DNA from: Chloroflexota bacterium
GTDB taxonomy: Bacteria; Chloroflexota; Anaerolineae; J102
DNA: 64,000 bases
Assembly (NCBI GenBank): GCA_013151415.1
Contig: JAADII010000116.1
Span: 24,512 to 88,511 of the forward strand
Reading direction: 5' to 3'
In this document: positions 4,555-53,207 of the stretch, in pieces
Layout: each line of letters starts with the position of its first letter
Position numbering within the stretch: the first letter of the stretch is position 1
Translations under genes and position numbers: made by a program
The notes under the pieces: model-generated
The model's database searches: none
What the model was told of the DNA's origin: nothing
The model's input: the letters and a program-made list of their open reading frames with translations, nothing else

Positions 4555-4895
4555 TTCGTCATGCTTGATACGCTTCCGACCATTTTGTTTACACAACCCT
4601 CCATTGCCATTACAATATGAATGCCTTTGGGTCTTGCCCATGCCTTGCGAGCGAATAATGCATCACGTTGTTCCCATCGTTTCATGGTTCATGGGCTTTG
4701 GCCTTTATTTTCATTCATGATGGTTTCATTCTCCCCAGCCTCTCGCGAACGTCCGCTCATCTTTTTCCGGCGCATGCTGTTTTGTTCGTCTGGCGCTGGA
4801 AATTGCGTTGCGCCTTGCCAGGTCTTTTCAGGTGGGCGGCTTTCATCTCCTCGTTTCTTGAAGGTCATTGCATCTTGGAATATCGATAACACGCC

Positions 4896-5978
4896 ATGGA
4901 CATAGGTATTATTGGTTTGCCCAACAGCGGCAAGACCACTCTATTCAACGCGCTCACCCGCGGCACAGTTGAGACTGCGGGCTATACATCAGGCCGAATG
5001 GAAGTGCACACGGCTATCGTGCAGGTCCCCGACCCGCGCCTGGATCGTCTGGGCGACATGTTTCGCCCCAAAAAGCTCACGCATGCGCATATCACCTATC
5101 GCGATATCGCCGGTTTGGCGCGCGGTATCGGCGAGGCCGGTGGCCTGGCCGGCCCTTTGCTCAATGAAATTGGTCAAAACGACGCGTTGCTTCTGGTCGT
5201 GCGAGCGTTCGAGGACCCAAACATCCTCCATCCCGAAGAGAGCATTGATCCGGCCCGCGATATCGAGTTGGTCGAGACCGAACTTATGCTCAACGATATG
5301 CTCATTATCACAAAACGCTTGGAGCGCATCGACCAGCGCGTGGGCAAAGGCGGCGATCCCAAGGAGGTGGCCGCAATGAAACGAGAGCGCGAGATCCTGG
5401 CGCGGTTGCTGGAACATTTGGAAACCGAGCGACCTTTGCGCGAGTTCGAGTTGGCGCCCGATGAGGAGAAGCTGCTGCGCGGGTTTAGCCTGCTTTCGCA
5501 GAAACCGTTGCTTGTGGTGCTAAACATCGACGAAGACGCGGATGAACGCATGGCGGAAGCGTTTTCCACCCCGACGCGACCCGCCATCGCCTTGCGCGGC
5601 CAACTTGAAGCTGAGCTCGCGCAAATGGAGCCGGATGAAGCAGCGGAGTTTCTGGCCGAATTTGGCATCGAAGAGCCAGGGTTCAACCGCGTTATTCGCG
5701 CCAGTTACGAGTTGATGGATGTTATTTCTTTTTTCACGGTAAGTGAAGAGGAGGTGAGATCCTGGACGATCCGCAAGGGTGCGACCGCCTTGGATGCGGC
5801 CGCCGCTGTGCATAGTGATCTTGCTCGCGGGTTTATTCGCGCCGAGGTTATCGCCTTTGACGAACTGGTGGCGGCCGGATCGTTAGCCGAAGCGCGCCGT
5901 CGCGGGCTGTTGCGGCTGGAGGGCAAGGAATATGTGGTGCAAGATGGCGAAATCGTTCATATTCGTTTCGCATTATGA
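4896..5978 (+). CDS. ychF: Ribosome-binding ATPase YchF (Obg-family GTPase/ATPase with C-terminal TGS domain)
   Basis: MDIGIIGLPNSGKTTLFNALT G1 motif, DIAGL G3 motif, and the C-terminal TGS-like segment FFTVSEEEVRSWTIRKGATALDAAAAVHSDLARGFIRAEVI. Confidence 0.9.
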   Translation: MDIGIIGLPNSGKTTLFNALTRGTVETAGYTSGRMEVHTAIVQVPDPRLDRLGDMFRPKKLTHAHITYRDIAGLARGIGEAGGLAGPLLNEIGQNDALLLVVRAFEDPNILHPEESIDPARDIELVETELMLNDMLIITKRLERIDQRVGKGGDPKEVAAMKREREILARLLEHLETERPLREFELAPDEEKLLRGFSLLSQKPLLVVLNIDEDADERMAEAFSTPTRPAIALRGQLEAELAQMEPDEAAEFLAEFGIEEPGFNRVIRASYELMDVISFFTVSEEEVRSWTIRKGATALDAAAAVHSDLARGFIRAEVIAFDELVAAGSLAEARRRGLLRLEGKEYVVQDGEIVHIRFAL

Positions 5979-6082: not shown

Positions 6083-6616
6083 TTACGGCTTAAGCTTGAA
6101 CGCGGCGACCAAGGCAAAGATGCCAAAGACGAGGCCGAAGGAGCCCAACACGAAGGGCAGCGCGGCCGCGCCGATGAGGGGATTGGCCATCAGCACAGCG
6201 CCGAAGAGAATGCTTAACACGCCCAAGACGCCAATGCCCCAGCCTCCGCCCTGGAAGGCCTGGATCAAATTGATCACGCCAATGACCACGCCAAAGATGC
6301 CCATCACCCAAACCCCGGTGGCCGGCACGATGATCGTGCTAATCAGGGGATGTTGGAGAATGAGCAAGCCGGCCATGATGCCGATGACGCCGGAAAATAG
6401 TTTCCAGCCCCAAGACGTATTGTCGATGAAAATGCTCACGATGGCGAAAATGCCGGTAATGAGCCAATAGACGCCGAGGAATGTCACCAAAGCAAACATG
6501 GTGACGCCGGGCGAAGTGAGCAGCAACACGCCGATGATGATGGCGGCGATGCCTTCGAGGAGCACAACCCACCAGGGGATCATGCCGCCGTCGGGAGCCA
6601 TGGTGTCGGTGGCCAT
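6083..6616 (-). CDS. HdeD-like / DUF308 family integral membrane protein
   Basis: Six predicted TM helices with repeated GxxxLxxGIxxIxxG patterns (WWVVLLEGIAAIIIGVLLL, GVYWLITGIFAIVSIF, GIMAGLLIL, GIFGVVIGVINL, GVLSILFGAVLM). Confidence 0.5.
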   Translation of the reverse strand: MATDTMAPDGGMIPWWVVLLEGIAAIIIGVLLLTSPGVTMFALVTFLGVYWLITGIFAIVSIFIDNTSWGWKLFSGVIGIMAGLLILQHPLISTIIVPATGVWVMGIFGVVIGVINLIQAFQGGGWGIGVLGVLSILFGAVLMANPLIGAAALPFVLGSFGLVFGIFALVAAFKLKP

Positions 6617-7019
6617 AAGGGTCCTCCTTTATGATGAGAGTATGGCGATTGAGACAAGGCTAAACCGAAGTCATCTTGAAAATCAATCGTCTTCGCGCGA
6701 ATGCGCGAATAGATGATGGAATGAATAGGACAAGGCGCGTTCCCCCCAATGGGGCTGGCGTCCAAAGAAATCGAGCTTTTTGCCGAATTCTTGTCCCGGA
6801 ATCATTGAGAAGAGGCTCAGAGCCAATGAAACGCAGGTTTTCAATATGACTTTGTTTAGTGAAACAGAATCATTATAACTGACGCTTCGTTGGGACACAA
6901 AATATGTCGCGTAGGGGGTGATTGAATCAGAACCGCGGCGTTCTCGCCTACTCGGCCTCGCGGTTTTCTCGATTCAAGGTCTTTTGTTTTGCCGCGCCAG
7001 AAGCCATGAAAGAAAAGGC

Positions 7020-8666
7020 TCAACGAGTGATGGCGTTGATGTTCGCGTCTCGGCAATCGCACGCTTTGGCCGCGCGACCGTTTGGCCCTTTCAAACCGCC
7101 CTGATATTCAAAACGACCGAACGCTCGCCAGCCCTCCATGTCGAAGGGTGCGGGGCCTGCGGCCGCCACCCACATGCCGTTATACATGCGCGCGAAGTGC
7201 ACATGCGAGCTGTCGGCCATGCCGCCTTCACACGCGGGCCGTCCCACTTTGTCACCGGCCTTCAAGACAACGCCCTGTTGTGGACGGTCGGTGATATGCA
7301 GATACTGAAGGACCCACCCTGTATGTGGGTTGCCGTCGCCATCGAGATCGAGCAAAACCTGGCCCTCTTCACTGCGCGCGACCACGCCCTCCGCCGCCGC
7401 GCGAGCCCAGGTTTGCGCGGGAATGCAGGTTCCGGGCGTCACATCTTCGGGCACCAGGTCCAGGGCCGCCCAAGCACTACCAGATCCCCAAGCGCCATGA
7501 GGGCCTCCGGTGAGAAACCATGTCTCGCCTTTGGCCCAGGGCAATAGCAGGTCGGGTTGGGTTAGGCCGGCTGGGAGGGGCGGGCCTGCATCCAATGCCA
7601 TGGGATCGCCGAACAGCCGTTGATATGCGTCTGAAAAGGCTTGTATTTCGGCTTCGAAGTCGGCCCATTTGCTGTCGCGGGCCAACGCCCGCTGTATGGC
7701 CACTGTGGCCGGGTTCAGGCCCGGCGCGGCGCGTGCAACCACCCCGTTGTAAAAGCGAATGGCGGTTTCACCCCGGTCTTGCCAACCATAATAACCGCGG
7801 TTCAGTTCCTCCGCGGCCCATTCCAATTGAGACCATAAGCCAGACGCCCCGCCAAAATGACCTAATGGATAGTCAATCGCTCGCGACGACGGCTCTGGAT
7901 TGGTCACCCAGCCGCCGCGCGCCTCCAATAGGGCCAACAGAACGCGCGGGCCTACACTATAATGATCGGCGATGCGGTTCAATATCTCGGCTCCGCTCAT
8001 CTCTCGCCCCCCGGGCATGCGCCGGCGATATGTGGCGAGATAGCCCCCCTGCCCCTGCACAAACGCTTCTATATCAAAATCGTTGTAGGCCGGGCCGTAG
8101 ACGAATTCGCTGTCGGGAATCAGGATATCCGCTGGCGTCAGACGGCGGGTGTGGTGCGGAATCACCAGCATTTGTCCGATGGCGAGCATGTTGGGGTTGT
8201 CGAGCTCGCTGTATTTGATGATATCGGCCACGCTCACGCGATAACGCGCGGCAATGCCGGATAGAGTTTGATTTTCGTATACGCGAATAAATTCCAACGC
8301 CGCGTCGGGCGGAACTGTGGGACCAGGCGTGGGCGCGAGAGGTCGGGTGGGCGTGGCGGTGGGTGTGAGCGTAGGCGTGAGTGTAACCGTGGGCGATGAG
8401 GTCGGCGTGCGCGTGGGCGGGGGGGGTGTGGGGGTGGCTGTGAGCGTGGGCGTTAGGGTGGGCGTGTTTGTGGCGGAAACCGCCGCGACAAACGGCTCGC
8501 TCCCAACGCGCGCCGCGGTGGGCGCGATGGCGGCCGACCGACATCCCGCCAACAGCCCGGCCCATAGCGCGATAATCCAAATTCGTCTGTCGATCAATCG
8601 CGTCATGTAAAAAATATCGACAATCAGACGATAAGGCCGATGGGACAATGGCCTGATGACCGCCAT
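7020..8666 (-). CDS. Secreted LysM-domain protein with a C-terminal M23-like peptidase domain and a Pro/Thr-rich linker
   Basis: Signal/TM N-terminus, a PT-rich linker (TPTLTPTLTATPTPPPP...) and LysM EFIRVYENQTLSGIAARYRVSVADIIKYSEL. The C-terminal HxH region (SSHVHFARMYNG) is M23-like. Confidence 0.6.
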   Translation of the reverse strand: MAVIRPLSHRPYRLIVDIFYMTRLIDRRIWIIALWAGLLAGCRSAAIAPTAARVGSEPFVAAVSATNTPTLTPTLTATPTPPPPTRTPTSSPTVTLTPTLTPTATPTRPLAPTPGPTVPPDAALEFIRVYENQTLSGIAARYRVSVADIIKYSELDNPNMLAIGQMLVIPHHTRRLTPADILIPDSEFVYGPAYNDFDIEAFVQGQGGYLATYRRRMPGGREMSGAEILNRIADHYSVGPRVLLALLEARGGWVTNPEPSSRAIDYPLGHFGGASGLWSQLEWAAEELNRGYYGWQDRGETAIRFYNGVVARAAPGLNPATVAIQRALARDSKWADFEAEIQAFSDAYQRLFGDPMALDAGPPLPAGLTQPDLLLPWAKGETWFLTGGPHGAWGSGSAWAALDLVPEDVTPGTCIPAQTWARAAAEGVVARSEEGQVLLDLDGDGNPHTGWVLQYLHITDRPQQGVVLKAGDKVGRPACEGGMADSSHVHFARMYNGMWVAAAGPAPFDMEGWRAFGRFEYQGGLKGPNGRAAKACDCRDANINAITR

Positions 8667-16629: not shown

Positions 16630-17943
16630 TTACGGCCCCGGCGTGACATTGGCCCATGAAGGCGGAGGCGGGCATTCTTGCTGAGGCTCTTGCGCAGGGC
16701 GGGGAATGGGCGGGGCCTCGAACAGGCTTTCGATGGCCCGATGCACCTTATCGCCATCAGACGTGACCAGATAAGCCCCGCTGGGCAAGTAAAGCCGCTT
16801 GGTGTATTGCGAGTCAAGCACCAGCGCATGCACGTCTTGCATATTGATGCCGCTGGCCATCTGCGCCAGCCCCACCAGGTCCATCAGGCTTAGATTGGTG
16901 CTAAAATAATCTTTGAAAATGCCCCACAGTTTGGGAATCTGGCTGAGAACTCCCGCACGGACAAATTGCTCGCGCGCGGCGGATAGGAATATCTGCTGAC
17001 GTCGGGCGCGAGAATAATCGGATGAGCCGTAACGATAAGTGACGAACTTCAACGAGGTCTCGCCATCGAGATGATTAGGCCCCGCGGGCAAATGCAAAAT
17101 ATCGCCAATGCCAGCGCCATCAGGCAGGGGCGCGTAATCCCAGAATTCGCAGGGCAGGGTCACATCCACGCCCCCTAATGCGTCGATAATCTCTACAAAG
17201 CCCTGGCGGTGCAATCGCGCGTATTTATCCAGGCGGATGCCAAAATTATAGGCGAACGTTCTTTGCAAAAGGCCAAATCCCCCTCCTTCCGCGCCAAAAT
17301 AATCGCCGATAAAGTCGAGTTGATTGATGCGACGATAACCGACTTCGGGCACATAGGCCCAATAGTCGCGAGGGAAAGAGATGATGCCCACGCGATTGTT
17401 TTCCCTATCCACCACCACCAGGAGCATGGTGTCGGTGCGCCAATCGCCGCGCCCCGGACGCAGATCACTGCCTAACAAGAGGATGTTCTGGGTGTTGGCC
17501 AGCGTCTGGGAAGGGGGGGCGGGGGTGGGAATGCAATCGACATAGGGGGTGCAGCCGGGGGGATTGTCGGTGGCCGCGCCTGCATCGATGGTGTTGGTGA
17601 GGCTTTCGGATGGGGCCGTTTCTTCGGTGGGAATAGACGTGGCCGTGGGGTGGGGCGTGTTGGTGGGGGTGGTCGTGAGCGTTGGGGTGGCGGTGGAGGT
17701 GGCGGTGGACGATATCGCGGGCGTTTTGGTCGATGCAAGCGTGGATGTGGGTGTGGAAGTGGGTGCGGGCGTTGGCGTGGCCGTGGGAGAGGGCCGCTCT
17801 GTGGGCGTGGCCGATGGCGAGCGCGTGGCCGCGCTCGTGGGCGCCGCGGCCGCTGCATCAGGCGTTGGCGTGGCGACCGGCGCCGCGCAGGCCGTAAACC
17901 AGAGCGCAAAAAGAAGAACGACGAATGAGCGGTGGAATTTCAT
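16630..17943 (-). CDS. LCP family (LytR-CpsA-Psr) cell-envelope polymer transferase with a Thr/Pro-rich linker
   Basis: Start trimmed to MKFHRSFVVLLFALWFTACAAP (cat at 17941-17943) to avoid overlap with the upstream paralog. LCP motifs LLLGSDLRPGRGDWRTDTMLLVVVD and GIISFPRDYW. Confidence 0.75.
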   Translation of the reverse strand: MKFHRSFVVLLFALWFTACAAPVATPTPDAAAAAPTSAATRSPSATPTERPSPTATPTPAPTSTPTSTLASTKTPAISSTATSTATPTLTTTPTNTPHPTATSIPTEETAPSESLTNTIDAGAATDNPPGCTPYVDCIPTPAPPSQTLANTQNILLLGSDLRPGRGDWRTDTMLLVVVDRENNRVGIISFPRDYWAYVPEVGYRRINQLDFIGDYFGAEGGGFGLLQRTFAYNFGIRLDKYARLHRQGFVEIIDALGGVDVTLPCEFWDYAPLPDGAGIGDILHLPAGPNHLDGETSLKFVTYRYGSSDYSRARRQQIFLSAAREQFVRAGVLSQIPKLWGIFKDYFSTNLSLMDLVGLAQMASGINMQDVHALVLDSQYTKRLYLPSGAYLVTSDGDKVHRAIESLFEAPPIPRPAQEPQQECPPPPSWANVTPGP

Positions 17944-27388: not shown

Positions 27389-27394
27389 GGTTTC

Positions 27395-27418
27395 AGTTCA
27401 CCGTTCACAGTTCAGAGT
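27395..27418 (-). promoter_or_regulatory. 24-nt conserved intergenic motif ACTCTGAACTGTGAACGGTGAACT (copy 1 of 2) in the hemE-hemL spacer, sense orientation on the minus strand
   Basis: Plus strand reads agttcaccgttcacagttcagagt. Its reverse complement matches the nuoH-nuoI spacer motif at 22/24 positions. Confidence 0.6.
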
Positions 27419-27425
27419 TGGCGGT

Positions 27426-33858: not shown

Positions 33859-33888
33859 TTGACGAGCGGGCAAGCCTCGTGATAGAAT
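33859..33888 (+). promoter_or_regulatory. Candidate sigma-70 promoter of the nuo operon (TTGACG, 18 nt, extended TGaTAGAAT)
   Basis: -35 TTGACG at 33859-33864, TG at 33880-33881, and -10 TAGAAT at 33883-33888, about 55 nt upstream of the nuoA ATG. Confidence 0.35.
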
Positions 33889-33941: not shown

Positions 33942-34298
33942 ATGGTTCTTGACTACCTACCCCTGCTCATCCTTTTCATTATTGCCGCCGGATTCGCGGC
34001 CATTGCCATCATTCTTCCCACGGTGCTCGGCCCGCGAAACCCCAACAAAATGAAGCAGGAACCCATCGAATCGGGCATGATCCCCTTCATGCAGGCGTGG
34101 CGTCGCTTTCCCGTGCAATATTACATGGTGGCGATGCTTTTCATCATCTTCGATATCGAGGTGATCTTTTTCTATCCCTGGGCCGTGGTGTTGGGCAAAT
34201 TAAAACTCTTTGGCTTGATCGAGATGGCCATCTTCTTGGGCATCTTGCTCATCGGCTATTTCTATGTTTGGCGCAAAGGCGCGTTCGAGTGGCAATAG
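33942..34298 (+). CDS. nuoA: NADH-quinone oxidoreductase subunit A
   Basis: 118 aa with 3 TM helices and the conserved FFYPWA pattern. Confidence 0.9.
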   Translation: MVLDYLPLLILFIIAAGFAAIAIILPTVLGPRNPNKMKQEPIESGMIPFMQAWRRFPVQYYMVAMLFIIFDIEVIFFYPWAVVLGKLKLFGLIEMAIFLGILLIGYFYVWRKGAFEWQ

Positions 34299-34844: not shown

Positions 34845-35018
34845 TAGATACTGGATAGTAGATACTGGATAGTTAGATACTGGATAATAGATATTGGGTA
34901 TTGGATAGTAAATGTTCGATATGAGTACGAAAAGCCCACTACCATCACAATATCCAATACCTAATACCTAATATCCCAAATACCCAATATCCAATACCCA
35001 AACACCCAAAACCCACCC
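34845..35018. repeat. AT-rich imperfect palindromic intergenic element (TAGATACTGGATAG tandem units on the left arm, TATCCAATACC units on the right arm) between nuoB and nuoCD
   Basis: Left arm tagatactggatag occurs 3 times in tandem; the right arm carries inverse complements. GC is about 30%, versus more than 60% in the flanking genes. Confidence 0.6.
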
Positions 35019-36761
35019 ATGCTCGACCCCATCGTTTCTCTCCGCGAAGCGTTTCCCGACGACGTATTGGATAGCAAGGTCTATCGCCAGACGCCCATCG
35101 TCACCGTGCGGGCGGATAAGCTGCTCGAGGTGATGCGCTTTCTGCGCGATGACCTGAAATACAACCTGCTCAGCGATCTCACGGTCGTCGATAATCTTCA
35201 TCTGCCCGAATTCAACGGCTCGGACGCGCGTTTCGTGGGCGTGTACCAATTGCGCAGCATCGAGCGCGACGGCGAATTGCTGCAGATCAAAGCGCCCATG
35301 CCGGGCGGCGATAACCCGGCCATCCCCAGCGTCACCTCGCTGTGGCCGGGTGCGAACTGGTACGAACGCGAGGCGTATGATCTCTTTGGCGTGAACTACA
35401 CAGGCCATCCCGACCTGCGTCGTCTGCTCATGCCCCATGACTGGGTGGGCCATCCTTTGCGCAAGGATCAGCCTTTGGGCGGTGAAAGAGTGCCCTTCAC
35501 CCTGACCTGGGAGGACGAGGAGTTTGCGCATCTGGGCCGACAGATCATGCGGCCCTTGCAAACGCCCGAACCTGTGCCCAGCCGCATGGACACGCGGCAT
35601 ATGGTGGTGAACATGGGGCCGCAACATCCCGCAACCCACGGCGTGTTGCGCCTGATTGTGGAGCTGGACGGCGAGACCATTGTGGCCGTGGAGCCGGACA
35701 TCGGCTATCTGCACAGCGGCTTCGAGAAACAGGGCGAAAACGTCCGATACAAGGACTTCACCTATTACACCGACCGCATGGATTATGTCTCGGCCATGCA
35801 AAACAATCTGGCCTATTCGCTGGCCGTGGAGAAGCTGTTAGGGGTCGAGGCCCCGCCGCGAGCCCAAGCCATTCGCGTCATCGTGGCCGAGCTTCAACGC
35901 ATCGCCAGCCATCTGGTGTGGTTGGCGACCCACGCGTTGGACGTGGGCGGCACGGGCCTGGCGCTGCTGATGTACGCGTTTCGCGAGCGCGAGGCCATCC
36001 TCGACCTGTTCGAGATGGTGTGCGGCGCGCGGCTGACCACTTCCTATATTCAGGTGGGCGGGGTGCAGTGGGATTTGCCGCCCGCGTTCGAGCCGCGGCT
36101 GCGCGAGCTGCTGGCCATCTTGCCGGAGCGGTTCGACGAATACGAACGCATGCTCACCGACAATCCCATCTGGCGCAAGCGGCTTGAGGGCGTGGGCTAT
36201 CTCAGCGCGGAAGACGCCATCGCCATGAACGTGACCGGCCCCATGCTGCGCGGTAGCGGCGTGAAATACGACCTGCGCAAGGCCCAGCCCTACTGCAATT
36301 ACGACCAGTACGATTTCGAGATACCCTGTTACACCGAGGGCGACAGTTACGCGCGCTATTTCGTGCGCATCGAGGAGATGCGGCAATCGCGACGCATCGT
36401 CGAGCAGGCCCTGGACAATCTGCCCGATGGCGATTATCGGCTGGACGACCCCAAAATCGCGCCGCCGAAACGAGACCTCCTGGACCAGAGCATGGAGGCC
36501 CTGATCCACCATTTCAAGCTGTTCACCGAGGGCTTCCGACCGCCGGCCGGCGAGGCCTATCACGGCATTGAGGCGTCCAAGGGCGAGATGGGCGTTTATC
36601 TCGTCTCGGATGGCGGGCCAAAGCCCTACCGTTGCCGGGTGCGCACGCCCAGCTTCGCCAATCTCCAGGCCATCGAAATCATGTCCAGAGGACACCTTTT
36701 CTCCGACCTCGTCACTGTCATCGGCTCGATCGACATCGTGCTGGGTGACGTGGATAGATAG
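35019..36761 (+). CDS. nuoCD: NADH-quinone oxidoreductase subunit C/D (30-kDa and 49-kDa subunits in one ORF)
   Basis: N-terminal NuoC-like region of about 170 aa, followed by NuoD with [18 protein letters not shown] and C-terminal RxxSF..L..IE..S...L.D motifs. Listed as one ORF in the provided track; continuity not independently re-translated. Confidence 0.9.
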
Positions 36762-36770
36762 GAGACGATG

Positions 36771-36806
36771 AGACGATAAGACCATCGTCCCATCGTCTTA
36801 TCGTCT
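36771..36806 (+). promoter_or_regulatory. Stable stem-loop (12-bp perfect stem AGACGATAAGAC / GTCTTATCGTCT, 12-nt loop) in the nuoCD-nuoEF spacer
   Basis: The inverted repeat is read directly from the sequence. Adjacent gacgat(g/a)aga tandem words allow alternative pairings. Confidence 0.45.
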
Positions 36807-36871: not shown

Positions 36872-38743
36872 ATGCTCTCTGACACTGCACGTTCTGAAAT
36901 TCAGGCCCTGATGGGCCGTTATCCACAGCCTCGCTCCGCGATCTTGCCCGCGCTTTATGTGGCGCAGCGCGAGATCGGCTGGCTTCCCACCGAGGCCATG
37001 GACGAAATCGCGACGCTCTTTGGCATGGAGCCGATGGAGGTGTACGCCATCGCCGGCTTCTACAACATGCTGTATAAGGAGCCAAAGGGCCGCTATCATA
37101 TCGAAATCTGCACCAATGTGCCCTGCAAGCTGCGCGGAGCCGACAAGATGGCCGAGCACTTGCAAAAACGGTTGGGCGTCGGCTTTGGCGAAACCACCGA
37201 GGACGGTCAGTTCACCCTCGATCACATGGAGTGTTTGGGGTCGTGCGCGACCGGGCCTATGTTCTTCGTGCGACGCAGCGGCAGCGATTGGGGCCGGTAT
37301 TATGAAGACCTCACGCCAGAACGCATCGACGCGATCCTGGAAGATTTGCTTTCGGGTGAGGATTGGCCCATGGAGCGCTCGCCGGCCGGGCCATACCATC
37401 ACGACCATCATCCCGAGACCAACTTCCTCCTGGCCCGCATCGACAAGCCCGACAGCCACACCATTGAGAGTTACCTGGCCGATGGCGGTTATCAGACCGC
37501 GCCCAAAGTGCTGGCCATGTCGCCGCAAGAGGTTATCGACGAGGTGAAAAAGGCCGGGGTGCGCGGTCGCGGGGGCGCGGGGTTCCCGGCCGGGGTGAAG
37601 TGGGGCTTCATCCCCAAAGACCTGTATCCGCGCTATCTGGTGGTCAATGCGGATGAGTCGGAGCCGGGCACGTTCAAGGATCGGCTCATCATCGAATACG
37701 ACCCGCACGAATTGCTCGAGGGCATCATCTGCACGGCCTGGGCCATCCAGGCGCACTACGCCTTCATTTATATACGCGGAGAATACATGTTCGGCGCGCA
37801 GCGCCTAAACCAGGCCATCGCCGAGGCCAAAGCGCGCGGTTTTCTGGGCAAGCATATTTTCGGCACGGATTTCGATCTGGAAGTGATCGTGCATCGCGGC
37901 GCGGGCGCGTACATCTGCGGCGAAGAAACCGCGCTGCTCAGCTCGCTCGAGGGCTATCGCGGCCATCCCCGACTCAAGCCCCCCTTCCCCGCGGTGGCCG
38001 GGCTTTACGCCAAGCCCACCATCGTCAACAACGTGGAGACCATCTCGCATGTGCGCCATGTGCTCGAGCATGGCGCGGATTGGTATCGCCAATGGGGCAC
38101 AGAACGGAGTCCGGGCTTCCAGTTGATCTGCCTGAGCGGCCAGGTGAAGAAGCCGGGCGTGTATGAAATTCCCTACGGAACCACGTTTCGCGAGCTGATC
38201 TACGACATGGCCGGGGGCACGGTGGATGATCGACCCATCAAGAGCATCATCCCCGGCGGCCTCTCCATGCCCCACATCCTGCCCGACAAGCTCGACATCG
38301 GCATTGATTTCGAGTCGTTGCAACAGGCCGGTTCGTTGCTCGGCTCGGGCGGCGTGATCGTCATTTGCGAGGGCGAGAACATCGTCCCCATCACCCGGCG
38401 CACATTGGGCTTCTACCGCGAAGAGTCCTGCGGCAAGTGTTCGCCCTGTCGCGAGGGCGTCGGCTGGATGGAGAAGATCCTCAAGCGCGTCGAGGCCGGC
38501 CAGGGAACGCTGAGCGACCTGGACACCATGGAACGGGTCACCAAGTATATCGAGCAACAGTCCTTCTGCCCCTTTGGCCCGGCCGCGGTGTGGGGCTTGC
38601 AGAGCACATTGCGTCATTTCCGCAGCGAATTCGAGGCGTACATTCTGGAAACCAACCCCGACCAGGAGAAGCCCTCATTGCCCGCGCGGCCCATCTACCG
38701 GCCCTATGTGGGCGAGCCGCTGGAAAACATGTTGGATGACTAA
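36872..38743 (+). CDS. nuoEF: NADH-quinone oxidoreductase subunits E and F (24-kDa and 51-kDa subunits in one ORF)
   Basis: N-terminal NuoE [2Fe-2S] motifs CTNVPC...CLGSC, then NuoF with the GRGGAGFP FMN/NADH site and C-terminal CGKCSPCREG and SFCPFGP cysteines. Listed as one ORF in the provided track, which is unusual; continuity not independently re-translated. Confidence 0.85.
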   Translation: MLSDTARSEIQALMGRYPQPRSAILPALYVAQREIGWLPTEAMDEIATLFGMEPMEVYAIAGFYNMLYKEPKGRYHIEICTNVPCKLRGADKMAEHLQKRLGVGFGETTEDGQFTLDHMECLGSCATGPMFFVRRSGSDWGRYYEDLTPERIDAILEDLLSGEDWPMERSPAGPYHHDHHPETNFLLARIDKPDSHTIESYLADGGYQTAPKVLAMSPQEVIDEVKKAGVRGRGGAGFPAGVKWGFIPKDLYPRYLVVNADESEPGTFKDRLIIEYDPHELLEGIICTAWAIQAHYAFIYIRGEYMFGAQRLNQAIAEAKARGFLGKHIFGTDFDLEVIVHRGAGAYICGEETALLSSLEGYRGHPRLKPPFPAVAGLYAKPTIVNNVETISHVRHVLEHGADWYRQWGTERSPGFQLICLSGQVKKPGVYEIPYGTTFRELIYDMAGGTVDDRPIKSIIPGGLSMPHILPDKLDIGIDFESLQQAGSLLGSGGVIVICEGENIVPITRRTLGFYREESCGKCSPCREGVGWMEKILKRVEAGQGTLSDLDTMERVTKYIEQQSFCPFGPAAVWGLQSTLRHFRSEFEAYILETNPDQEKPSLPARPIYRPYVGEPLENMLDD

Positions 38744-38798
38744 CGCCTGGTTCAAAGTTTCTGGTTCCTGGTTCAAGGTTAACGCCACCACCCGCCAC

Positions 38799-38875
38799 TT
38801 GACACTTGACACTTGACACCTGACACCTGACCCTTGACACCTGACACTTGACACTTGACACTCAACACCTGACCC
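38799..38875 (+). repeat. Eleven tandem heptad repeats (T/C)TGAC(A/C)C, consensus TTGACAC, ending 3 nt before the nuoG ATG
   Basis: Read directly: ttgacac x3, ctgacac, ctgaccc, ttgacac, ctgacac, ttgacac x2, tcaacac, ctgaccc. They are preceded by ctggttcaa(a/g)g mini-repeats at about 38746-38780. Confidence 0.85.
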
Positions 38876-42485: not shown

Positions 42486-42495
42486 TTTGGAACAC

Positions 42496-42519
42496 ACTCT
42501 GAACTGTGAACCGTGAATT
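42496..42519 (+). promoter_or_regulatory. 24-nt conserved intergenic motif ACTCTGAACTGTGAACCGTGAATT (copy 2 of 2) in the nuoH-nuoI spacer
   Basis: 22/24 identical to the sense-strand motif in the hemE-hemL spacer (reverse complement of 27395-27418). Confidence 0.6.
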
Positions 42520-43035: not shown

Positions 43036-43109
43036 GATTTGGAGATTGCATCAGCCCTTTCGGGCTTCGCAATGACGCATCCTTTTAACGCAACACGCAC
43101 TACGCAATC

Positions 43110-43926: not shown

Positions 43927-45879
43927 ATGATTTTCGATTACGCCTGGCTGATTCTTTTGTTCCCGGCCCTGGGTTTGCTTTTCAACGCCTTCTTTGGGCG
44001 ACGCGTCGGGCATAAAGTCGCGGCCATTGTCGCCAATCTGGCCGTGGCGCTCTCTTTCCTCATGGCCGTGGCCCTGGCCATGGGTCTCAGCGCACTGCCC
44101 GGCGATGAGTCCAGCGTCGAGGTGTTGCTTTGGCCCTGGATACATATTGCCGGTTTTCAGGTGGACATGGCCCTGCTCATCGATCCGCTGTCGTCGGTCA
44201 TGATACTGGTCGTGACCGGCATCGGCCTGCTCATCCACATCTACTCGGCCACATATATGAAGGTGGATGACGAGCACCAGCCCATGGACGAGCGCCGCTA
44301 TGCACGGTTCTTCGTGTATATGAACCTGTTCATTCTCATGATGCTCACGCTGGTGCTGGCCAACAATTACGTCATGCTCTATCTCGGCTGGGAAGGCGTG
44401 GGGTTGGCTTCCTACCTGCTCATCGGGTTCTGGTTCTACAAACCCTCCGCGGCCGACGCGGCCAAGAAGGCGTTTCTGGTCAATCGCGTGGGCGATTTCG
44501 GCATGGCCCTGGCCATCATGTGGATGTTCTTCCTCTTTGGCAAGGAGGCCGGAAGTCTCTCCTTCGACGCGGTGTTCGCGGCTCTGGAAACGGCGTCGCC
44601 CGCGGTCGTGGCCGCGCTGACCGGCGTGACCTTGCTTTTGCTTTTGGCCGCGACCGGCAAATCCGCACAAATCCCGCTCTTTGTGTGGTTGCCCGACGCC
44701 ATGGAAGGCCCCTCGCCCGTCTCGGCCCTCATTCATGCCGCGACCATGGTCACGGCCGGCGTCTACATGCTGGCCCGCTCGCACCCTCTGCTCGAACTCG
44801 CGCCGGCCACCATGACGCTCATCGCCTGGATCGGGGGATTGACCGCATTGATGGCCGCGAGCATCGCTATAGTGCAAACCGATCTCAAGCGCATTCTGGC
44901 CTACTCCACCATTTCGCAGTTGGGCTATATGTTTTTGGGTGTGGGCGTGGGCGCGTATGTGGCCTCGGTCTTTCATCTTTACACCCACGCCTTTTTCAAG
45001 GCCTTGCTCTTCCTCGCGGCCGGGTCGGTCATGCACGCGCTGCACGGCGAGCTCAACATCGACCTCATGGGCGGCCTGCGCAAGAAACTGCCCGTCACCT
45101 ACGCACAGTTTCTCATCGGCGCGCTGGCCCTGGCCGGATTCCCCCTCCTTTCAGGCTACTGGTCCAAAGACGCCATTCTCTTGGGCGCGTTTGTCACCTC
45201 TTATCCGCTCTACGCCATCGGCCTTTTCACGGCTTTGCTCACCGCGTTCTACTCGTTGCGCGCGGTCTATCGCGCGTTCCACGGCCAACCGCGCGACGAA
45301 CATCTCTACGACCATGCGCACGAACAACCTCGTGGCATGACCTGGCCCCTTTGGGCGCTGGCCTTCGGCGCGGTTTTTGCTGGTTTGCTTGGCCTGCCCG
45401 CGATTTTCGGCAAGGAATTCGGCTTTCCCGTGGGCAATCTCATCGAGGGTTGGCTAAAGCCCACATTTGAAGGTTTGTCCGAACCTCATGTGGCGTTTTC
45501 CACTGAGATGGCGTTGTTCATTTCTTCAGGTTTTGTGGCGCTCATCGGCATCTATCTGGCCTATGCGCGCTATGTCAAACAGTCCGGCTGGACGCTTTCG
45601 TTGCAAAAAGCGCTATCGCCTTTGCAACCGGCTCTGGAGAACAAGTATTGGGTCGATGAAATCTACTTCGCGGTCATCGTCAACCCGCTGCGAGCGCTGG
45701 CCCGATTCTTCGCCACCGGAGCCGAGGGCGTCATCGACGGCGTGGTCAACGGCGTGGGCGCGGTGACCACGGCCGCGGGCGTGGGCATCGCCCGTCTTCA
45801 AACCGGCCTGCTCAGTTGGTACGCTCTCTCCCTCTTCCTCGGCGTGGTTTTGCTGTTGATTTACTTCGTTTTTGCATAG
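43927..45879 (+). CDS. nuoL: NADH-quinone oxidoreductase subunit L (antiporter-like)
   Basis: 650 aa. The Mrp-antiporter-like core has WLPDAMEGPSPVSALIHAATMVTAGVY. Confidence 0.95.
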   Translation: MIFDYAWLILLFPALGLLFNAFFGRRVGHKVAAIVANLAVALSFLMAVALAMGLSALPGDESSVEVLLWPWIHIAGFQVDMALLIDPLSSVMILVVTGIGLLIHIYSATYMKVDDEHQPMDERRYARFFVYMNLFILMMLTLVLANNYVMLYLGWEGVGLASYLLIGFWFYKPSAADAAKKAFLVNRVGDFGMALAIMWMFFLFGKEAGSLSFDAVFAALETASPAVVAALTGVTLLLLLAATGKSAQIPLFVWLPDAMEGPSPVSALIHAATMVTAGVYMLARSHPLLELAPATMTLIAWIGGLTALMAASIAIVQTDLKRILAYSTISQLGYMFLGVGVGAYVASVFHLYTHAFFKALLFLAAGSVMHALHGELNIDLMGGLRKKLPVTYAQFLIGALALAGFPLLSGYWSKDAILLGAFVTSYPLYAIGLFTALLTAFYSLRAVYRAFHGQPRDEHLYDHAHEQPRGMTWPLWALAFGAVFAGLLGLPAIFGKEFGFPVGNLIEGWLKPTFEGLSEPHVAFSTEMALFISSGFVALIGIYLAYARYVKQSGWTLSLQKALSPLQPALENKYWVDEIYFAVIVNPLRALARFFATGAEGVIDGVVNGVGAVTTAAGVGIARLQTGLLSWYALSLFLGVVLLLIYFVFA

Positions 45880-45991
45880 TTGGATATTGGATATTAGATA
45901 CTAGATATTAGATATTAGATATTCTTCAATACCCAATATCCAATACCCATTGTCCAATACCCAATATTCATTACCCATTATCCAAATATCC
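45880..45991. repeat. AT-rich imperfect palindromic intergenic element (GGATATTGGATATTAGATA left arm, TATCCAATACCC right arm) between nuoL and nuoM. It belongs to the same family as 34845-35018.
   Basis: Read directly: ttggatattggatattagatactagatattagatattagatatt, then aatacccaatatccaatacccattgtccaatacccaat.... GC is about 30%. Confidence 0.6.
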
Positions 45992-47476
45992 ATGGATTTC
46001 ACATCCTTGCCTCTTCTTTCCCTGATCCTTTGGCTGCCTTTGGTGGGTGCGCTGCTGCTGATGTTCCTCTTTTCTGAGCGAAGCATCAAAGTGGCCGCGT
46101 TGCTCATCAGCCTGGCCGATTTCGCGCTTTCGCTGGGCCTGCTGGCCGGTTGGCGAAGCACGGGCGCGATGCAGTTCGAGGAGTTCATGCCCTGGATAAC
46201 GCAGTTGAACATCAACTATCACCTGGGCGTGGACGGCATCAGCCTTTTCCTGGTGCTCCTCACCACTTTGATGGGGCCCATCGTCGTGCTCTTCTCTTGG
46301 AACAACATCCAGGAGAACTTACGCGCGTTTCTGATCTTGCTGCTCGTGCAACAGACGGCCATGTTGGGCGTGTTCATGGCCCTGGATTTGATCCTTTTCT
46401 TCCTCTTCTGGGAGATGAGCATCATCCCCATGTATTTCCTCATCGGCAAGTGGGGCTCGGGACGGCGAGTCTATGCGGCCACCAAGTTCCTGCTCTACAC
46501 GTTGGCCGGCTCCGCCTTCATGCTCATCGCCATCATCGCCTTGTATGTGGTCACAGGCAGTTTCGATTGGGTTGATCTGCGCGGGGCGACGCTCACGCCC
46601 GCGCTGGAATTCTTGGCGTTCTGGGCTTTCGCCATTGCTTTCGCGGTGAAGGTGCCCCTTTTCCCGCTTCACACCTGGTTGCCCGACGCGCACGTGCAAG
46701 CGCCCACCGCGGGTTCGGTCATTCTGGCCGGCATTTTGCTGAAGATGGGCACCTATGGCTTTCTGCGCTTCTCGTTGCCCCTCTTCCCTCAGGCCGCAGT
46801 GACTTACGCGCCCTGGCTGGCCGGCGTCGCCATCATCGGCATCCTTTACGGCGCTCTGACCGCCCTGGTGCAAAAGGACGTGAAATCTCTGGTCGCGTAT
46901 AGCTCCATCGCCCATCTGGGTTTCGTCATGTTGGGCATCGTCACCTTCACCAGCCAGGGGCTATCGGGCGCGGTGTTGCAAAACATCAATCATGGCCTCT
47001 CCACGGGCGCGTTGTTCCTCCTGGTGGGCATGCTCTACGACCGCCGCCACACGCGCATGTTGGCCGATTACGGCGGCTTGTGGAAACAGGCTCCTCTGTT
47101 CAGCGCCATCTTCGTGCTGGTGGCCATGTCTTCCGTAGGCCTGCCAGGCTTGAACGGCTTTGTGGGCGAATTCACCATTCTCGTGGGCGCGTTCCGCGTG
47201 AACATGATCTGGGCCGCGTTGGGCACATTGGGCATCATCTTCGCGGCCTGGTATCTGCTCACGGCCGCGCGCGGGCTGCTGTTTGGCCCTCTGGACGAAA
47301 AGAACAAAGACCTGCCTGACCTGAACCGCCGCGAGTTCTGGCTGCTGGTTCCCATTCTCATTCTTTTCTTCATTATCGGTCTTTTCCCCAACCTCTTCTT
47401 CGACAAAATCAATCCCTCGGTCGAGGCGCTCATGCGCGATGTGGGCCAGGCGGCCATCGTGCGGGTTGTCGATTAA
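45992..47476 (+). CDS. nuoM: NADH-quinone oxidoreductase subunit M (antiporter-like)
   Basis: Start trimmed to MDFTSLPLLSLILWLP (atg at 45992) because the longer ORF begins inside the AT-rich repeat. Conserved WLPDAHVQAPTAGSVILAGILLKMG. Confidence 0.9.
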   Translation: MDFTSLPLLSLILWLPLVGALLLMFLFSERSIKVAALLISLADFALSLGLLAGWRSTGAMQFEEFMPWITQLNINYHLGVDGISLFLVLLTTLMGPIVVLFSWNNIQENLRAFLILLLVQQTAMLGVFMALDLILFFLFWEMSIIPMYFLIGKWGSGRRVYAATKFLLYTLAGSAFMLIAIIALYVVTGSFDWVDLRGATLTPALEFLAFWAFAIAFAVKVPLFPLHTWLPDAHVQAPTAGSVILAGILLKMGTYGFLRFSLPLFPQAAVTYAPWLAGVAIIGILYGALTALVQKDVKSLVAYSSIAHLGFVMLGIVTFTSQGLSGAVLQNINHGLSTGALFLLVGMLYDRRHTRMLADYGGLWKQAPLFSAIFVLVAMSSVGLPGLNGFVGEFTILVGAFRVNMIWAALGTLGIIFAAWYLLTAARGLLFGPLDEKNKDLPDLNRREFWLLVPILILFFIIGLFPNLFFDKINPSVEALMRDVGQAAIVRVVD

Positions 47477-49285: not shown

Positions 49286-49315
49286 TTGAGAAGATGGCCA
49301 ATGGCAAGGTATAAT
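49286..49315 (+). promoter_or_regulatory. Candidate promoter of the ATPase/DUF4276 pair (TTGAGA, 18 nt, TATAAT)
   Basis: -10 TATAAT at 49310-49315 and -35-like TTGAGA at 49286-49291. A perfect TTGACA at 49277-49282 is 27 nt away and was not used. Confidence 0.35.
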
Positions 49316-49354: not shown

Positions 49355-50497
49355 ATGACGCGAGGGTCACTGATGGCATCTCTTCTGTTGGAAAGCATAA
49401 CACTTCAAGGTTACAAATCCATACGCGAGGCCAAGATCGCGTTAGCCCCTATCAACGTGCTCATCGGAGCCAATGGTTCGGGGAAGTCCAATTTCATTAC
49501 CCTTTTCAGGTTCATGAACAGAGTTATGAACCTGGGAATGCAGAAACATGTGGCCCAGGCGGGAGGAGCCGACCAGATACTTCATTACGGTCGCAAGACC
49601 ACAGAACGCCTATACATCGAATTGTGGTTCCGCACAGGCGAGAACACCGCGAATGGTTATGCCTGCTCACTCATCCCGACCGCCGAAGACTTGCTTGTGT
49701 TCGACGAAGAACGCATTTTTTTCCACGATCGCCGGCGTTACGGACGACCATACGAAAGCAAGGCGTCCACCAAAGTGCACGACGAGACGAGGTTGCTCGA
49801 TTGGCACCAGAATAAAGACCAAGTTGCACACTATGTGTTAAGAGCGCTGCGTTCGTGGCAGCTCTACCACTTCCACGACACCAGCGAAACAGCCCGTGTC
49901 AAGCAAACGGGTGACATCCACGACAACCTGTTTCTCCGCCCTGATGCATCGAATCTGGCGGCTTATCTCTTCCTACTGCGTGAGACAGAGCCCGAATACT
50001 ACCATAATATTGTGGAAACTGTTCGGATGGCCGCGCCCTTTTTCGGTGATTTTGTCTTGCGTCCCTCCCCATTCAATCCCGAAAAAATCCGCCTCGAATG
50101 GCAAGAGCGGGGATCAGACATCCTTTTTGGCCCGCACACACTGTCCGATGGAACGCTGCGTTTCATTTGTCTGACGACCCTATTCTTACAGCCACCGGAC
50201 CGCTTGCCGGCAACCATTGTCTTGGACGAACCTGAATTGGGTCTTCATCCATTCGCGATCACGCTCCTGGCCAACATGATTCGAAGCGTTTCCGAACACA
50301 CCCAGGTCATCCTCGCCACACAATCTGTCACCCTGGTGAACCAATTCGCCCCGCAAGACATCCTTGTCGCCGACCGCATCAAAGGGGAATCCATCTTCCG
50401 TCGTTTGTCTGAGGAAGAGATGATCGCCTGGTTGGAAGATTACGGCCTTGGAGATCTATGGGAGAAAAACCTATTGGGAGGACGGCCGGCGTTATGA
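49355..50497 (+). CDS. ABC-type (AAA_21/AAA_15-like) ATPase, first gene of a two-gene putative defence module
   Basis: Walker A GANGSGKSN, signature-like LSDGTLRF, Walker B IVLDEPELGLHP and H-loop ILATQS. The gene is lower-GC than its surroundings. The start could be M1 or M7. Confidence 0.75.
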   Translation: MTRGSLMASLLLESITLQGYKSIREAKIALAPINVLIGANGSGKSNFITLFRFMNRVMNLGMQKHVAQAGGADQILHYGRKTTERLYIELWFRTGENTANGYACSLIPTAEDLLVFDEERIFFHDRRRYGRPYESKASTKVHDETRLLDWHQNKDQVAHYVLRALRSWQLYHFHDTSETARVKQTGDIHDNLFLRPDASNLAAYLFLLRETEPEYYHNIVETVRMAAPFFGDFVLRPSPFNPEKIRLEWQERGSDILFGPHTLSDGTLRFICLTTLFLQPPDRLPATIVLDEPELGLHPFAITLLANMIRSVSEHTQVILATQSVTLVNQFAPQDILVADRIKGESIFRRLSEEEMIAWLEDYGLGDLWEKNLLGGRPAL

Positions 50498-52649: not shown

Positions 52650-53207
52650 TTAATCGCCGGACGCAGAATGCGCAGGCGTGGGCGAGGGCGTGGGGGTTTC
52701 GGTTGGCGCAGGAGTTGGGCTGGGCGTGGGCGAAGGCGTGGGCGTTGATGTGGGGGTGGGTGAAGGCGTGGGGGTGTTGGTGGGCGGCGGAAAGAGCAGG
52801 GGCGTGTCGCTTTGCGGTTGCGAGGGCGCCAATGGCTGCACAACGGGAGGGCCGAGAGGGAAATCGCCTCGCCACATAAAGGTGAGCAGCGCGGCCAACA
52901 CCAACACGGCGAAAGCTGGCGCGGCCCACGCCAGGAGACGGTTCAAGCGGCCCCCGCGAGAGGCCGACGCCTGTCGCGCCGCGCTTTCGGCCGCCGCGGT
53001 GAGAAAGGCCGAGCGTCCCGGACGCAATCCATGCGGGGGCGGGGGCGCGTCGGCCAGGCTGTGTTGCACCTGACGAGCGACAAAGATCAGCGCGCGCTCC
53101 TCCGCGGGCAATTGCTGCATTGTCGCGCCGCTCTTGCCCTCGATAAGTTCGTCGATGGCTCGATCGAGCAGCAGGTCTCGGTCGGCTGAAGATGGGCGAA
53201 TGTTCAT
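52650..53207 (-). CDS. Anti-sigma factor (single TM, Pro/Thr-rich extracytoplasmic tail)
   Basis: 4-nt overlap with the upstream ECF sigma gene. TM helix LLAWAAPAFAVLVLAALLTFMW and a PTPSPTPTSTPTPSPTP tail. Confidence 0.55.
   Translation of the reverse strand: MNIRPSSADRDLLLDRAIDELIEGKSGATMQQLPAEERALIFVARQVQHSLADAPPPPHGLRPGRSAFLTAAAESAARQASASRGGRLNRLLAWAAPAFAVLVLAALLTFMWRGDFPLGPPVVQPLAPSQPQSDTPLLFPPPTNTPTPSPTPTSTPTPSPTPSPTPAPTETPTPSPTPAHSASGD

Follow-up and report, generated by a model that had tools for sequence, protein, structure and literature searches.

The spacer between nuoL and nuoM in a 64,000-nt stretch of a Chloroflexota contig (JAADII010000116.1; hereafter the window) is an untranslated intercistronic sequence composed of two arrays of 7-nt units. 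It is best described as a compound heptanucleotide simple-sequence repeat (SSR), of the kind known as short tandemly repeated repetitive (STRR) sequences or long simple-sequence repeats (LSSRs), and not as a discrete mobile element, a gene or an RNA gene. Its 112 bases (45880-45991) are the whole gap between the two genes: nuoL (plus-strand open reading frame (ORF) 43927-45879; NCBIfam TIGR01974, E 5.6e-214) ends in the stop codon TAG at 45877-45879, the repeat spacer starts at the next base, and the nuoM ATG follows at 45992. Across the nuo operons of related genomes the layout, polarity and period of such spacers are kept and their sequence is not: a G-richer, often C-poor array follows the upstream stop codon, and a G-poor array rich in C, A and U runs up to the next start codon.

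The left (5´) array (45880-45923) has about six heptamers, two TTGGATA units followed by four of the form TTAGATA/CTAGATA and a final TT, and the right (3´) array (45928-45991) has about nine, mostly CAATACC/CAATATC with the decayed variants CATTGTC, CAATATT, CATTACC and CATTATC; its last base adjoins the ATG. Both words quoted in the original prediction, which had seen an AT-rich palindromic element here, were found in the spacer, GGATATTGGATATTAGATA at 45882-45900 and TATCCAATACCC at 45937-45948. Tandem Repeats Finder reported period-7 repeats at 45883-45923 (GATATTA, 5.9 copies, 91% matches) and 45927-45985 (CAATACC, 8.4 copies), the right array also scoring at periods 14 and 28, and a strict lag-7 scan gave a segment spanning 45878-45926 for the left array. 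An inverted-repeat search returned 43-nt arms (45881-45923 and 45928-45970) that are 77% complementary and flank a 4-nt loop, CTTC (45924-45927). The spacer has 38% GC, compared with ~59% for the window. The left array contains a single C and carries TAG in all three frames through its TTAGATA/CTAGATA units, while only one G occurs in the 68 nt from 45924 to 45991, and the right array is without ATG, GTG or a Shine-Dalgarno (SD) motif, its one potential start codon being an in-frame TTG at 45950. Strict period-7 segments are rare in the 64 kb: there are four, totaling 195 nt and all within nuo spacers, compared with 0.05 in shuffled sequences.

The longest ORF for nuoM begins, as had been noted, at TTG 45950 inside the right arm and in frame with the gene, which would make 45950-45991 a 14-codon N-terminal extension (LSNTQYSLPIIQIS). 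That the right arm is coding is almost certainly wrong. The NCBIfam NuoM profiles first align at residues 18-23 of the 508-aa ORF that starts at this TTG. Most of the 40 closest homologues listed have the N-terminus MDLTSLPLLS, and ATG 45992 gives MDFTSLPLLS. A database protein (P0001) is 100% identical over 494 aa from ATG 45992 and is annotated at that length. DNA homology with a close relative resumes at exactly this codon, and the putative extension is simply a translated heptamer repeat. We therefore discarded the extension as spurious and assigned nuoM to 45992-47476 (plus strand, 494 aa; TIGR01972, E 1.3e-179). The same evidence bears out the expectation that the spacer is non-coding and abuts the true nuoM start codon. 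In practical terms, the nuoM start is fixed at ATG 45992, and calling genes by the longest ORF will, in this lineage, add translated repeat at gene starts.

The spacer had been taken for the second copy of a palindromic element located between nuoB and nuoCD (34845-35018, plus strand), and the two are indeed related. The nuoB-nuoCD spacer has a left array of about ten TAGATAC/TGGATAG units, a unique loop of ~45 nt, and a right array of about nine CAATATC/CAATACC/TAATACC units followed by CCCAAAACCCACCC and ATG 35019, with zero G in its final 60 nt. It thus has the word family and two-arm layout of the nuoL-nuoM spacer: an exact 22-mer, AATACCCAATATCCAATACCCA, is common to both (34979-35000 and 45928-45949), and AATACCCAATATCC, allowing up to two mismatches, matches ten times in the window, always in these two spacers (0.25 matches expected from shuffles; 0 of 100 shuffles reached ten). 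Aligned with MAFFT, the repeat parts of the two spacers show 74% column identity. The description as copies of a discrete element did not hold up, however. What the spacers share is heptamer units, without a unique core or defined ends; unit counts and unit variants differ, as do the loops (~45 nt vs 4 nt).

The source is a metagenome-assembled Chloroflexota genome, P0001 being labeled "Chloroflexi bacterium", and its nearest NuoM relatives belong to the Caldilineales/Caldilineae. In the closest locus compared (L120, NuoM 93% identical), the 3´ end of nuoL shows 90% DNA identity up to 45872 and nuoM shows 86% from its first base, and nothing aligns between them; L120 instead has 178 nt of unrelated sequence with TAATCAT/TAATCTT heptamers ending at the ATG. 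Among the relatives used for architecture, whose NuoM proteins are 70-76% identical, the nuoL-nuoM junction consists of 273 nt ending in three CAACACG units in L122, is only 10 nt long in L121, and is broken by an inserted PMT_2-family gene in L204. Other junctions in these operons follow the same plan with still other units. L122 has four TTAGTTA/TTGGTTA units, four TAACCAA units and a C-rich tail between nuoG and nuoH, and six GTGAAAC units followed by seven CCAATCT/CCAATAA units between nuoI and nuoJ. L204 has three TTAGAGA followed by three TCTCCAA units between nuoG and nuoH, L206 has five TTAATGA units, three CCCAATA units and then the ATG between nuoH and nuoI, and the nuoI-nuoJ spacer of L121 contains CCAATACCCAATATCCATTATCC. 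In L206, CACGCAC or CAATCAA arrays come after GGTT/GGTTAGTT arrays in spacers of 302-449 nt.

To quantify the polarity, we used 29 nuo spacers of at least 45 nt from seven loci. In 28 of the 29, GC skew dropped from the 5´ half to the 3´ half, and in 27 it was negative in the 3´ half; the best autocorrelation lag was 7 in 20 of the 29 3´ halves. In a composition sample of 18 spacers from four of the seven loci, the last 40 nt before the start codon mostly held 0-6 G and 13-21 C, in a setting where G makes up ~30% of the window. Distant NuoM relatives (48-63% identity, from a metagenome scan) have spacers mostly no longer than 40 nt, many with a GGAG-type SD, and few show a period-7 signal; they serve as an outgroup and say little about turnover. 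At the other extreme, L122 and L123 are 99.94% identical (eight single-nucleotide polymorphisms (SNPs) in 12.9 kb), with no SNP or indel in any spacer array. On these comparisons with L120 and between L122 and L123, spacer turnover is complete at ~10-14% DNA divergence and invisible at 0.06%. Two further observations concern the relatives' spacers. The giant spacers of L206, a Caldilineales metagenome-assembled genome (MAG), at 4481-4782, 6353-6801 and 7619-8005, place an AT-rich center between their GGTT/GGTTAGTT arrays and CCAA/CAATCAA/CACGCAC arrays and form very long imperfect palindromes in an essential operon. Genes are inserted in the nuo spacers at 5220-5954 and 8038-9987 of L204, 7334-7969 of L205 and 2242-2520 of L123, encoding a methyltransferase, the PMT_2-family protein (nuoL-nuoM), a PIN toxin with a small partner ORF and a CopG antitoxin; since whole genes are accommodated, these spacers tolerate insertions.

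The window itself contains several more spacers of the same design. The operon, in which NCBIfam models identified nuoE, nuoF and nuoG, has fused nuoCD and fused nuoEF genes (35019-36761, 580 aa, and 36872-38743, 623 aa). Between these two lies an octamer hairpin (36762-36806, plus strand) of three GAGACGAT and three CATCGTC units, detected by Tandem Repeats Finder and in the sequence; although the unit is 8 nt, the architectural principle is the same, and its sense fold (-37.4 kcal/mol, z -4.1) is the best sense-strand hairpin of the operon. The nuoEF-nuoG spacer (38746-38873, plus strand; Tandem Repeats Finder score 107) has a CCTGGTT-type array followed by 11 CACTTGA/CACCTGA units, the last ending 5 nt before the nuoG ATG; its arms are non-complementary, and it folds no better than shuffles on either strand. 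Shorter plus-strand arrays are found between nuoH and nuoI (TGAACTG TGAACCG TGAA, 42490-42512, then a C-rich, G-free tail up to ATG 42556) and in the nuoJ leader (ACGCAAC ACGCACT ACGCAAT, 43089-43109, reported to end 1 nt before ATG 43110). Outside the operon, three units (TGAACTG TGAACGG TGAACTG; 27394-27419, minus strand) lie between hemE and hemL (Pfam URO-D and Aminotran_3), ending 5 nt before the hemL ATG (27388), such that the TGAACTG/TGAACSG heptamer occurs in two unrelated intercistronic spacers. Overall, nuoCD, nuoEF, nuoG, nuoH, nuoI, nuoJ and nuoM are all preceded by heptamer or octamer arrays or by G-poor, C-rich tails that end "...C ATG", and no SD was found at any of these starts.

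The unit of the right array is widespread. A scan of public genomes with AATAYCCAATAYCCAATAYCC yielded no fewer than 119 loci, which come from many phyla, have unrelated flanks and share neither a core nor ends, so that they do not make up a mobile element family. Among the matches listed, judged by record titles, ~42 are from Chloroflexota, 17 from Cyanobacteria (mostly Nostoc) and ~23 from Bacteroidota, with others from Spirochaetes, Armatimonadota and bacteria of the candidate phyla radiation. These CCAATAY arrays have from 3 to more than 14 units and often adjoin an array of a different, G-rich heptamer, which in Nostoc is GGGGACT (L011, L012, L002); we take these GGGGACT arrays beside CCAATAC to match the STRR1 consensus. 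Chloroflexota loci with these arrays have a plausible gene start downstream, at a distance of up to 80 nt, 19 times on the G-poor strand, compared with 7 times on the opposite one. In some Chloroflexota MAGs (L095 ~6026, L096 ~80-120, L101 ~6484), arrays and hairpin pairs of CCAATAY/RTATTGG seem to be located inside long ORFs. None of the six reading frames of the CCAATAY unit contains a stop codon, and insertions that keep the frame could therefore be tolerated. A separate observation was made for the Candidatus Haliotispira prima chromosome (L017, L048, L088, L089, L107), which has a dispersed repeat, three or more copies of which can fall within 8 kb, consisting of a promoter-like TTGACT-17-TATAAT site directly followed by six ATCCAAT units.

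Against what defines a heptanucleotide SSR, the nuoL-nuoM spacer has tandem units in numbers beyond chance and beyond the three required (5.9 and 8.4 copies of period 7), lies in non-coding DNA, and is built from a unit of variable copy number dispersed over two loci in the window and over the public-genome loci. The array also varies at the same genomic position, being replaced in L120, absent from L121 and different in L122. For phase-variable contingency loci, the one near-identical pair available, L122 and L123, shows no array indels.

We predicted RNA folding for both strands of the spacer. The sense-strand (mRNA) fold of 45880-45991 has an energy of -25 kcal/mol (z -2.75), better than shuffles, and the minus-strand fold reaches -52.3 kcal/mol (z -8.6), a value attained by 0 of 200 shuffles. 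The nuoB-nuoCD spacer likewise gives -72.5 (z -5.9) on the minus strand vs -37.2 (z -2.4) on the sense strand. This asymmetry arises because As of the left arm oppose Cs of the right arm on the sense strand and become G·U pairs on the antisense strand (seven antisense vs two sense G·U pairs in the nuoL-nuoM spacer; 15 vs 2 in the nuoB-nuoCD spacer). The antisense fold is the stronger one in 15 of the 18 nuo spacers, some of which have no real hairpin, because the sense strands are depleted in G and enriched in A and C. An antisense RNA, which the strong minus-strand fold had suggested, was set aside on these grounds, and we read the strand asymmetry as probably part of a tendency toward mRNA leaders with little structure. 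Folded as sense RNA, the right array is predicted to be able to pair with the left array over roughly its first 43 nt, and the last 21-28 nt before the AUG are largely single-stranded except for a weak 5-bp local hairpin. This hairpin, which includes the UG of the AUG, corresponds to ATCCATGGAT at 45983-45997, a perfect 10-nt palindrome centered on the nuoM start codon.

Searches for known signals were negative for the spacer. A promoter and terminator scan returned none at 45880-45991 on either strand, with operon-wide counts not above those of shuffles; the only strong promoter-like site of the operon region is at 33859-33888, upstream of nuoA. The stem is AT-rich and is not followed by a T run, and so does not qualify as an intrinsic terminator. 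There were no Rfam matches at gathering thresholds in the 64 kb, the sub-threshold hits being eukaryotic microRNA-precursor hairpins (17-32 bits vs thresholds of 53-230) that we regard as generic hairpins, and a tRNA search found none for the element.

On balance we lean toward a reading in which the spacer was built from heptamers by slippage and its G-poor 3´ part acts as an unstructured, SD-less leader for nuoM, almost without upstream start codons. Replication slippage on the 7-nt units would create and remodel the arrays, and fold-back (hairpin-templated) copying would probably keep the two arms related, with the outcome that unit sequence and array length would turn over fast between species. 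Directly behind the nuoL stop codon, the left array would pair imperfectly with roughly the first six right-array units in a stem-loop of moderate stability, the last 21-28 nt of the G-poor array would remain largely single-stranded up to the AUG, and the ribosome would begin translation at the first AUG it can reach, 45992, with no SD involved. A stretch free of G holds no start codon or SD-like motif, as G is part of ATG, GTG and TTG alike, and a leader free of false starts and SD-like sites would suit SD-less initiation. The A-for-G substitutions in the left arm, by weakening the sense stem, would fit the leader role. An SD-like motif was seen at only 12 of 46 starts in the window, a rough figure for which the first ATG of each ORF was taken as the start.

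Several points weigh against this reading. The leader role is argued from composition alone, and the model gives no reason for the C-poor 5´ array or for a unit of 7 nt. One in-frame TTG, at 45950 in the right arm, keeps the leader from being entirely devoid of start codons. With all phyla taken together, CCAATAY arrays are only weakly biased in orientation toward a downstream start (24 vs 12 within 40 nt). There are also exceptions to the G-poor rule: a few leaders in relatives are purine-rich with SD-like repeats (between nuoM and nuoN in L120 and between nuoJ and nuoK in L122). Finally, the identity of the L122 and L123 arrays indicates that slippage is not fast in the short term, and turnover could be by replacement instead.

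The same data bear on other explanations. The stem-loop itself could be the functional unit, an intercistronic mRNA hairpin that shields the upstream nuoL segment against 3´ exonucleases, marks where an RNase processes the transcript, or couples translation; we consider this unlikely. The inverted arrangement is present in both window spacers and in relatives (nuoG-nuoH in L122 and L204; nuoI-nuoJ, nuoK-nuoL and nuoM-nuoN in L206), both sense folds and the 36762-36806 hairpin outscore shuffles, and there are precedents: for the hupS-hupL STRR hairpins, a role in making transcripts more stable or in coupling translation has been proposed (PMC2670836), and at nifH1 the half-life of the transcript is extended by a stem-loop located at the processing site (PMC4284476). 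However, A·C oppositions weaken the sense stems systematically, leaving them less stable than the antisense folds in most spacers, and the same polarity is seen where the arms are non-complementary (nuoEF-nuoG in the window, nuoI-nuoJ and nuoM-nuoN in L122, nuoH-nuoI in L206). The structure is also absent at the L121 nuoL-nuoM junction and replaced by unrelated sequence in L120, and since the subunits of complex I are all needed 1:1, differential stability of segments has no obvious use. Those antisense folds might instead mean that the minus strand matters, as an antisense RNA hairpin or as a single-stranded DNA hairpin for transposase or recombinase recognition or replication pausing, and the energies (-52.3 vs -25 kcal/mol and -72.5 vs -37.2) and extra G·U pairs of both spacers would agree with this. 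Such a role is nonetheless quite improbable: no promoter-like or terminator-like site was found on the minus strand at the element, Rfam gave no family and sub-threshold generic hairpins only, the sequence is not kept in close relatives, and the asymmetry is a generic property of nuo spacers that follows from G-depleted sense strands having G/U-rich complements.

A small non-autonomous mobile element inserted twice in the nuo operon, similar to a miniature inverted-repeat transposable element (MITE) or to repetitive extragenic palindromes (REPs) and bacterial interspersed mosaic elements (BIMEs), would account for the 22-mer and two-armed layout common to two loci of one operon, for the AT-richness relative to the genome, and for presence or absence at the same junction among relatives, whose nuo spacers moreover accept CopG, PIN and methyltransferase genes. 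We regard it as very unlikely. The two copies differ in unit number, variants and loop, all of their similarity is confined to the tandem unit, and neither a unique core, conserved termini nor a visible target-site duplication in the flanks was found. In public genomes the unit was found at 119 or more loci, spread over many phyla and without related flanks, and arrays of quite different heptamers often lie next to it; neighboring spacers, too, show the same design made from other units. A MITE- or REP-like mobile palindrome, for which terminal inverted repeats, a conserved core and length, and a target-site duplication would be expected, was accordingly rejected. Enterobacterial REPs and BIMEs are imperfect intercistronic palindromes in polycistronic operons and proposed mRNA stabilizers; REPs are near-identical conserved units of ~35 nt, not tandem heptamers, and a transposase-like protein is linked to them. 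Compared by description only, the nuoL-nuoM spacer resembles REP/BIME sequences in being an imperfect palindrome in such an intercistronic spacer but contains no conserved ~35-nt unit that we could find. The G-poor tract might also be a loading site for Rho, akin to a Rho utilization (rut) site, that ties transcription of nuoM-nuoN to efficient translation initiation and is partly masked by the left arm. Rho loading sites are C-rich and G-poor, and composition is what speaks for this idea, with one G in 68 nt at 45924-45991 and the low G and high C counts in the last 40 nt of the 18 spacers. The nuoM tract is, however, A/U-rich and not strongly C-rich, a polarity site would be without obvious benefit in an operon whose products are all needed 1:1, and no rho gene was seen in the window, though none was searched for. 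We thus rate a rut function as highly improbable.

Comparison with known repeats places the spacer in a recognized class with some features of its own. Filamentous cyanobacteria reportedly carry STRR heptamers in hairpin arrays and in nif clusters, said to have been described by Jackman and Mulligan in 1995 and by Mazel and colleagues in 1990. The STRR1-3 consensus sequences are CCCCAGT, TTGGTCA and CAACAGT; the TTGGATA and CAATACC units differ from these, and the host is a Caldilineales-like Chloroflexota of ~59% GC and not a heterocystous cyanobacterium, such that the spacer is not an STRR in the strict cyanobacterial sense. The likenesses are 7-nt tandem units in intercistronic operon spacers, arrays that can fold into a hairpin, a structured layout that is kept although the sequence changes greatly from one close relative to the next, and a function that is unknown, and the CCAATAC unit itself occurs in Nostoc beside the GGGGACT arrays. 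The polarity with respect to transcription, G-richer 5´ and G-poor 3´ in 28 of 29 spacers, sets the nuo spacers apart, as we found no such description for STRRs. The closest published setting is that of hairpins of 7-bp repeats of unknown function between hupS and hupL in filamentous cyanobacteria (PMC2670836).

Other heptamer repeats show partial similarity. TAACTGA arrays of marine Beggiatoaceae, some Cyanobacteria and Bacteroidetes end one to a few nt before starts without ribosome-binding sites (MacGregor 2015, PMC4679880). Like the nuo spacers, they are mostly intergenic heptamer arrays oriented to the downstream ORF and ending near its start, with a scattered phylogenetic distribution (PMC4679880). 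In contrast to the arrays described here, TAACTGA has G and stop codons, one unit dominates per genome where many units occur per operon here, the second, partly complementary array upstream is peculiar to the nuo spacers, and TAACTGA arrays are short, with 2-6 copies in the reference genome (PMC4679880). Heptamer SSRs are over-represented in many bacteria, with slippage proposed as the cause, according to summaries of Mrazek 2007 given in PMC4679880 and PMC4692102; as summarized there, the heptamer is the over-represented length among LSSRs (5-11 nt) and these repeats have an intergenic bias, which the nuo arrays share. The GGGAATC/GGGGAYT heptamers of Xanthomonas and Nostoc also occur in inverted arrangements with stem-loop potential, in one case within an operon, pecE-pecF (Rehm 2015, PMC4692102), and vary in length and sequence between close relatives at the same intergenic positions (PMC4692102), as do the nuo arrays. 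They are G-rich and have been studied for G-quadruplex formation (PMC4692102), whereas the nuoL-nuoM spacer is AT-rich, without G runs, and nearly G-free in its start-proximal half.

The heptamer repeat class was thus already known, without a functional explanation, and its occurrence in a new phylum is what is new. In Chloroflexota, too, the spacers of an essential respiratory operon are filled with heptamer repeats able to form hairpins, which had been known chiefly from operons of cyanobacteria. The part worth pursuing is the polarity relative to transcription, seen in 28 of 29 spacers, together with complete sequence turnover; a consistent layout that survives such turnover between close relatives gives a testable hypothesis on why 7-nt repeats are over-represented and whether they are for SD-independent initiation. 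More tentatively, and with rather more doubt than conviction, we propose that in Caldilineales-like Chloroflexota, and perhaps in other low-SD lineages such as filamentous cyanobacteria and Bacteroidota, these spacers may be a polarity-constrained design made from slippage-prone heptamers, with a G-richer array, often containing stop codons, behind the upstream gene and a G-poor array, in which start codons and SD-like motifs are impossible, reaching the next AUG. Heptamer SSRs would then be more than junk and could supply the material for an SD-independent (re)initiation platform, or serve as a lattice bound by a protein whose footprint is 7 nt, for example S1 or cold-shock-domain proteins. 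If true, this would account for the excess of heptamer repeats between bacterial genes, which has long been noted but not explained.

We also noted features of the window that are separate from the nuo spacers. The trinucleotide CTC precedes the ATG at ~9 of 46 approximate starts, compared with fewer than one expected (for example at 33942, 34308, 36872, 38879 and 42556), and CTC-ATG may be a Kozak-like start context in this lineage; the counts are rough, since the first ATG of each ORF served as its start. GC-rich tandem arrays of 6/12-nt units (GTGGGC, GTGGCGGTGGG, GGCGTG) are located at 8327-8466, 17639-17780 and 52675-52786, the first inside a 548-aa minus-strand ORF with a LysM domain, where it probably codes for a low-complexity segment rich in Pro, Arg and His. 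The gene after nuoN (49355-50497) encodes an AAA ATPase with weak similarity to anti-phage components: its match to MADS3 has an E value of 1e-27, far below the family cut-off, and it is also weakly like the N-terminus of the retron Eco8 effector. The 372-nt gap before this gene holds a strong promoter-like site at 49286-49315, with 11 of 12 matches.

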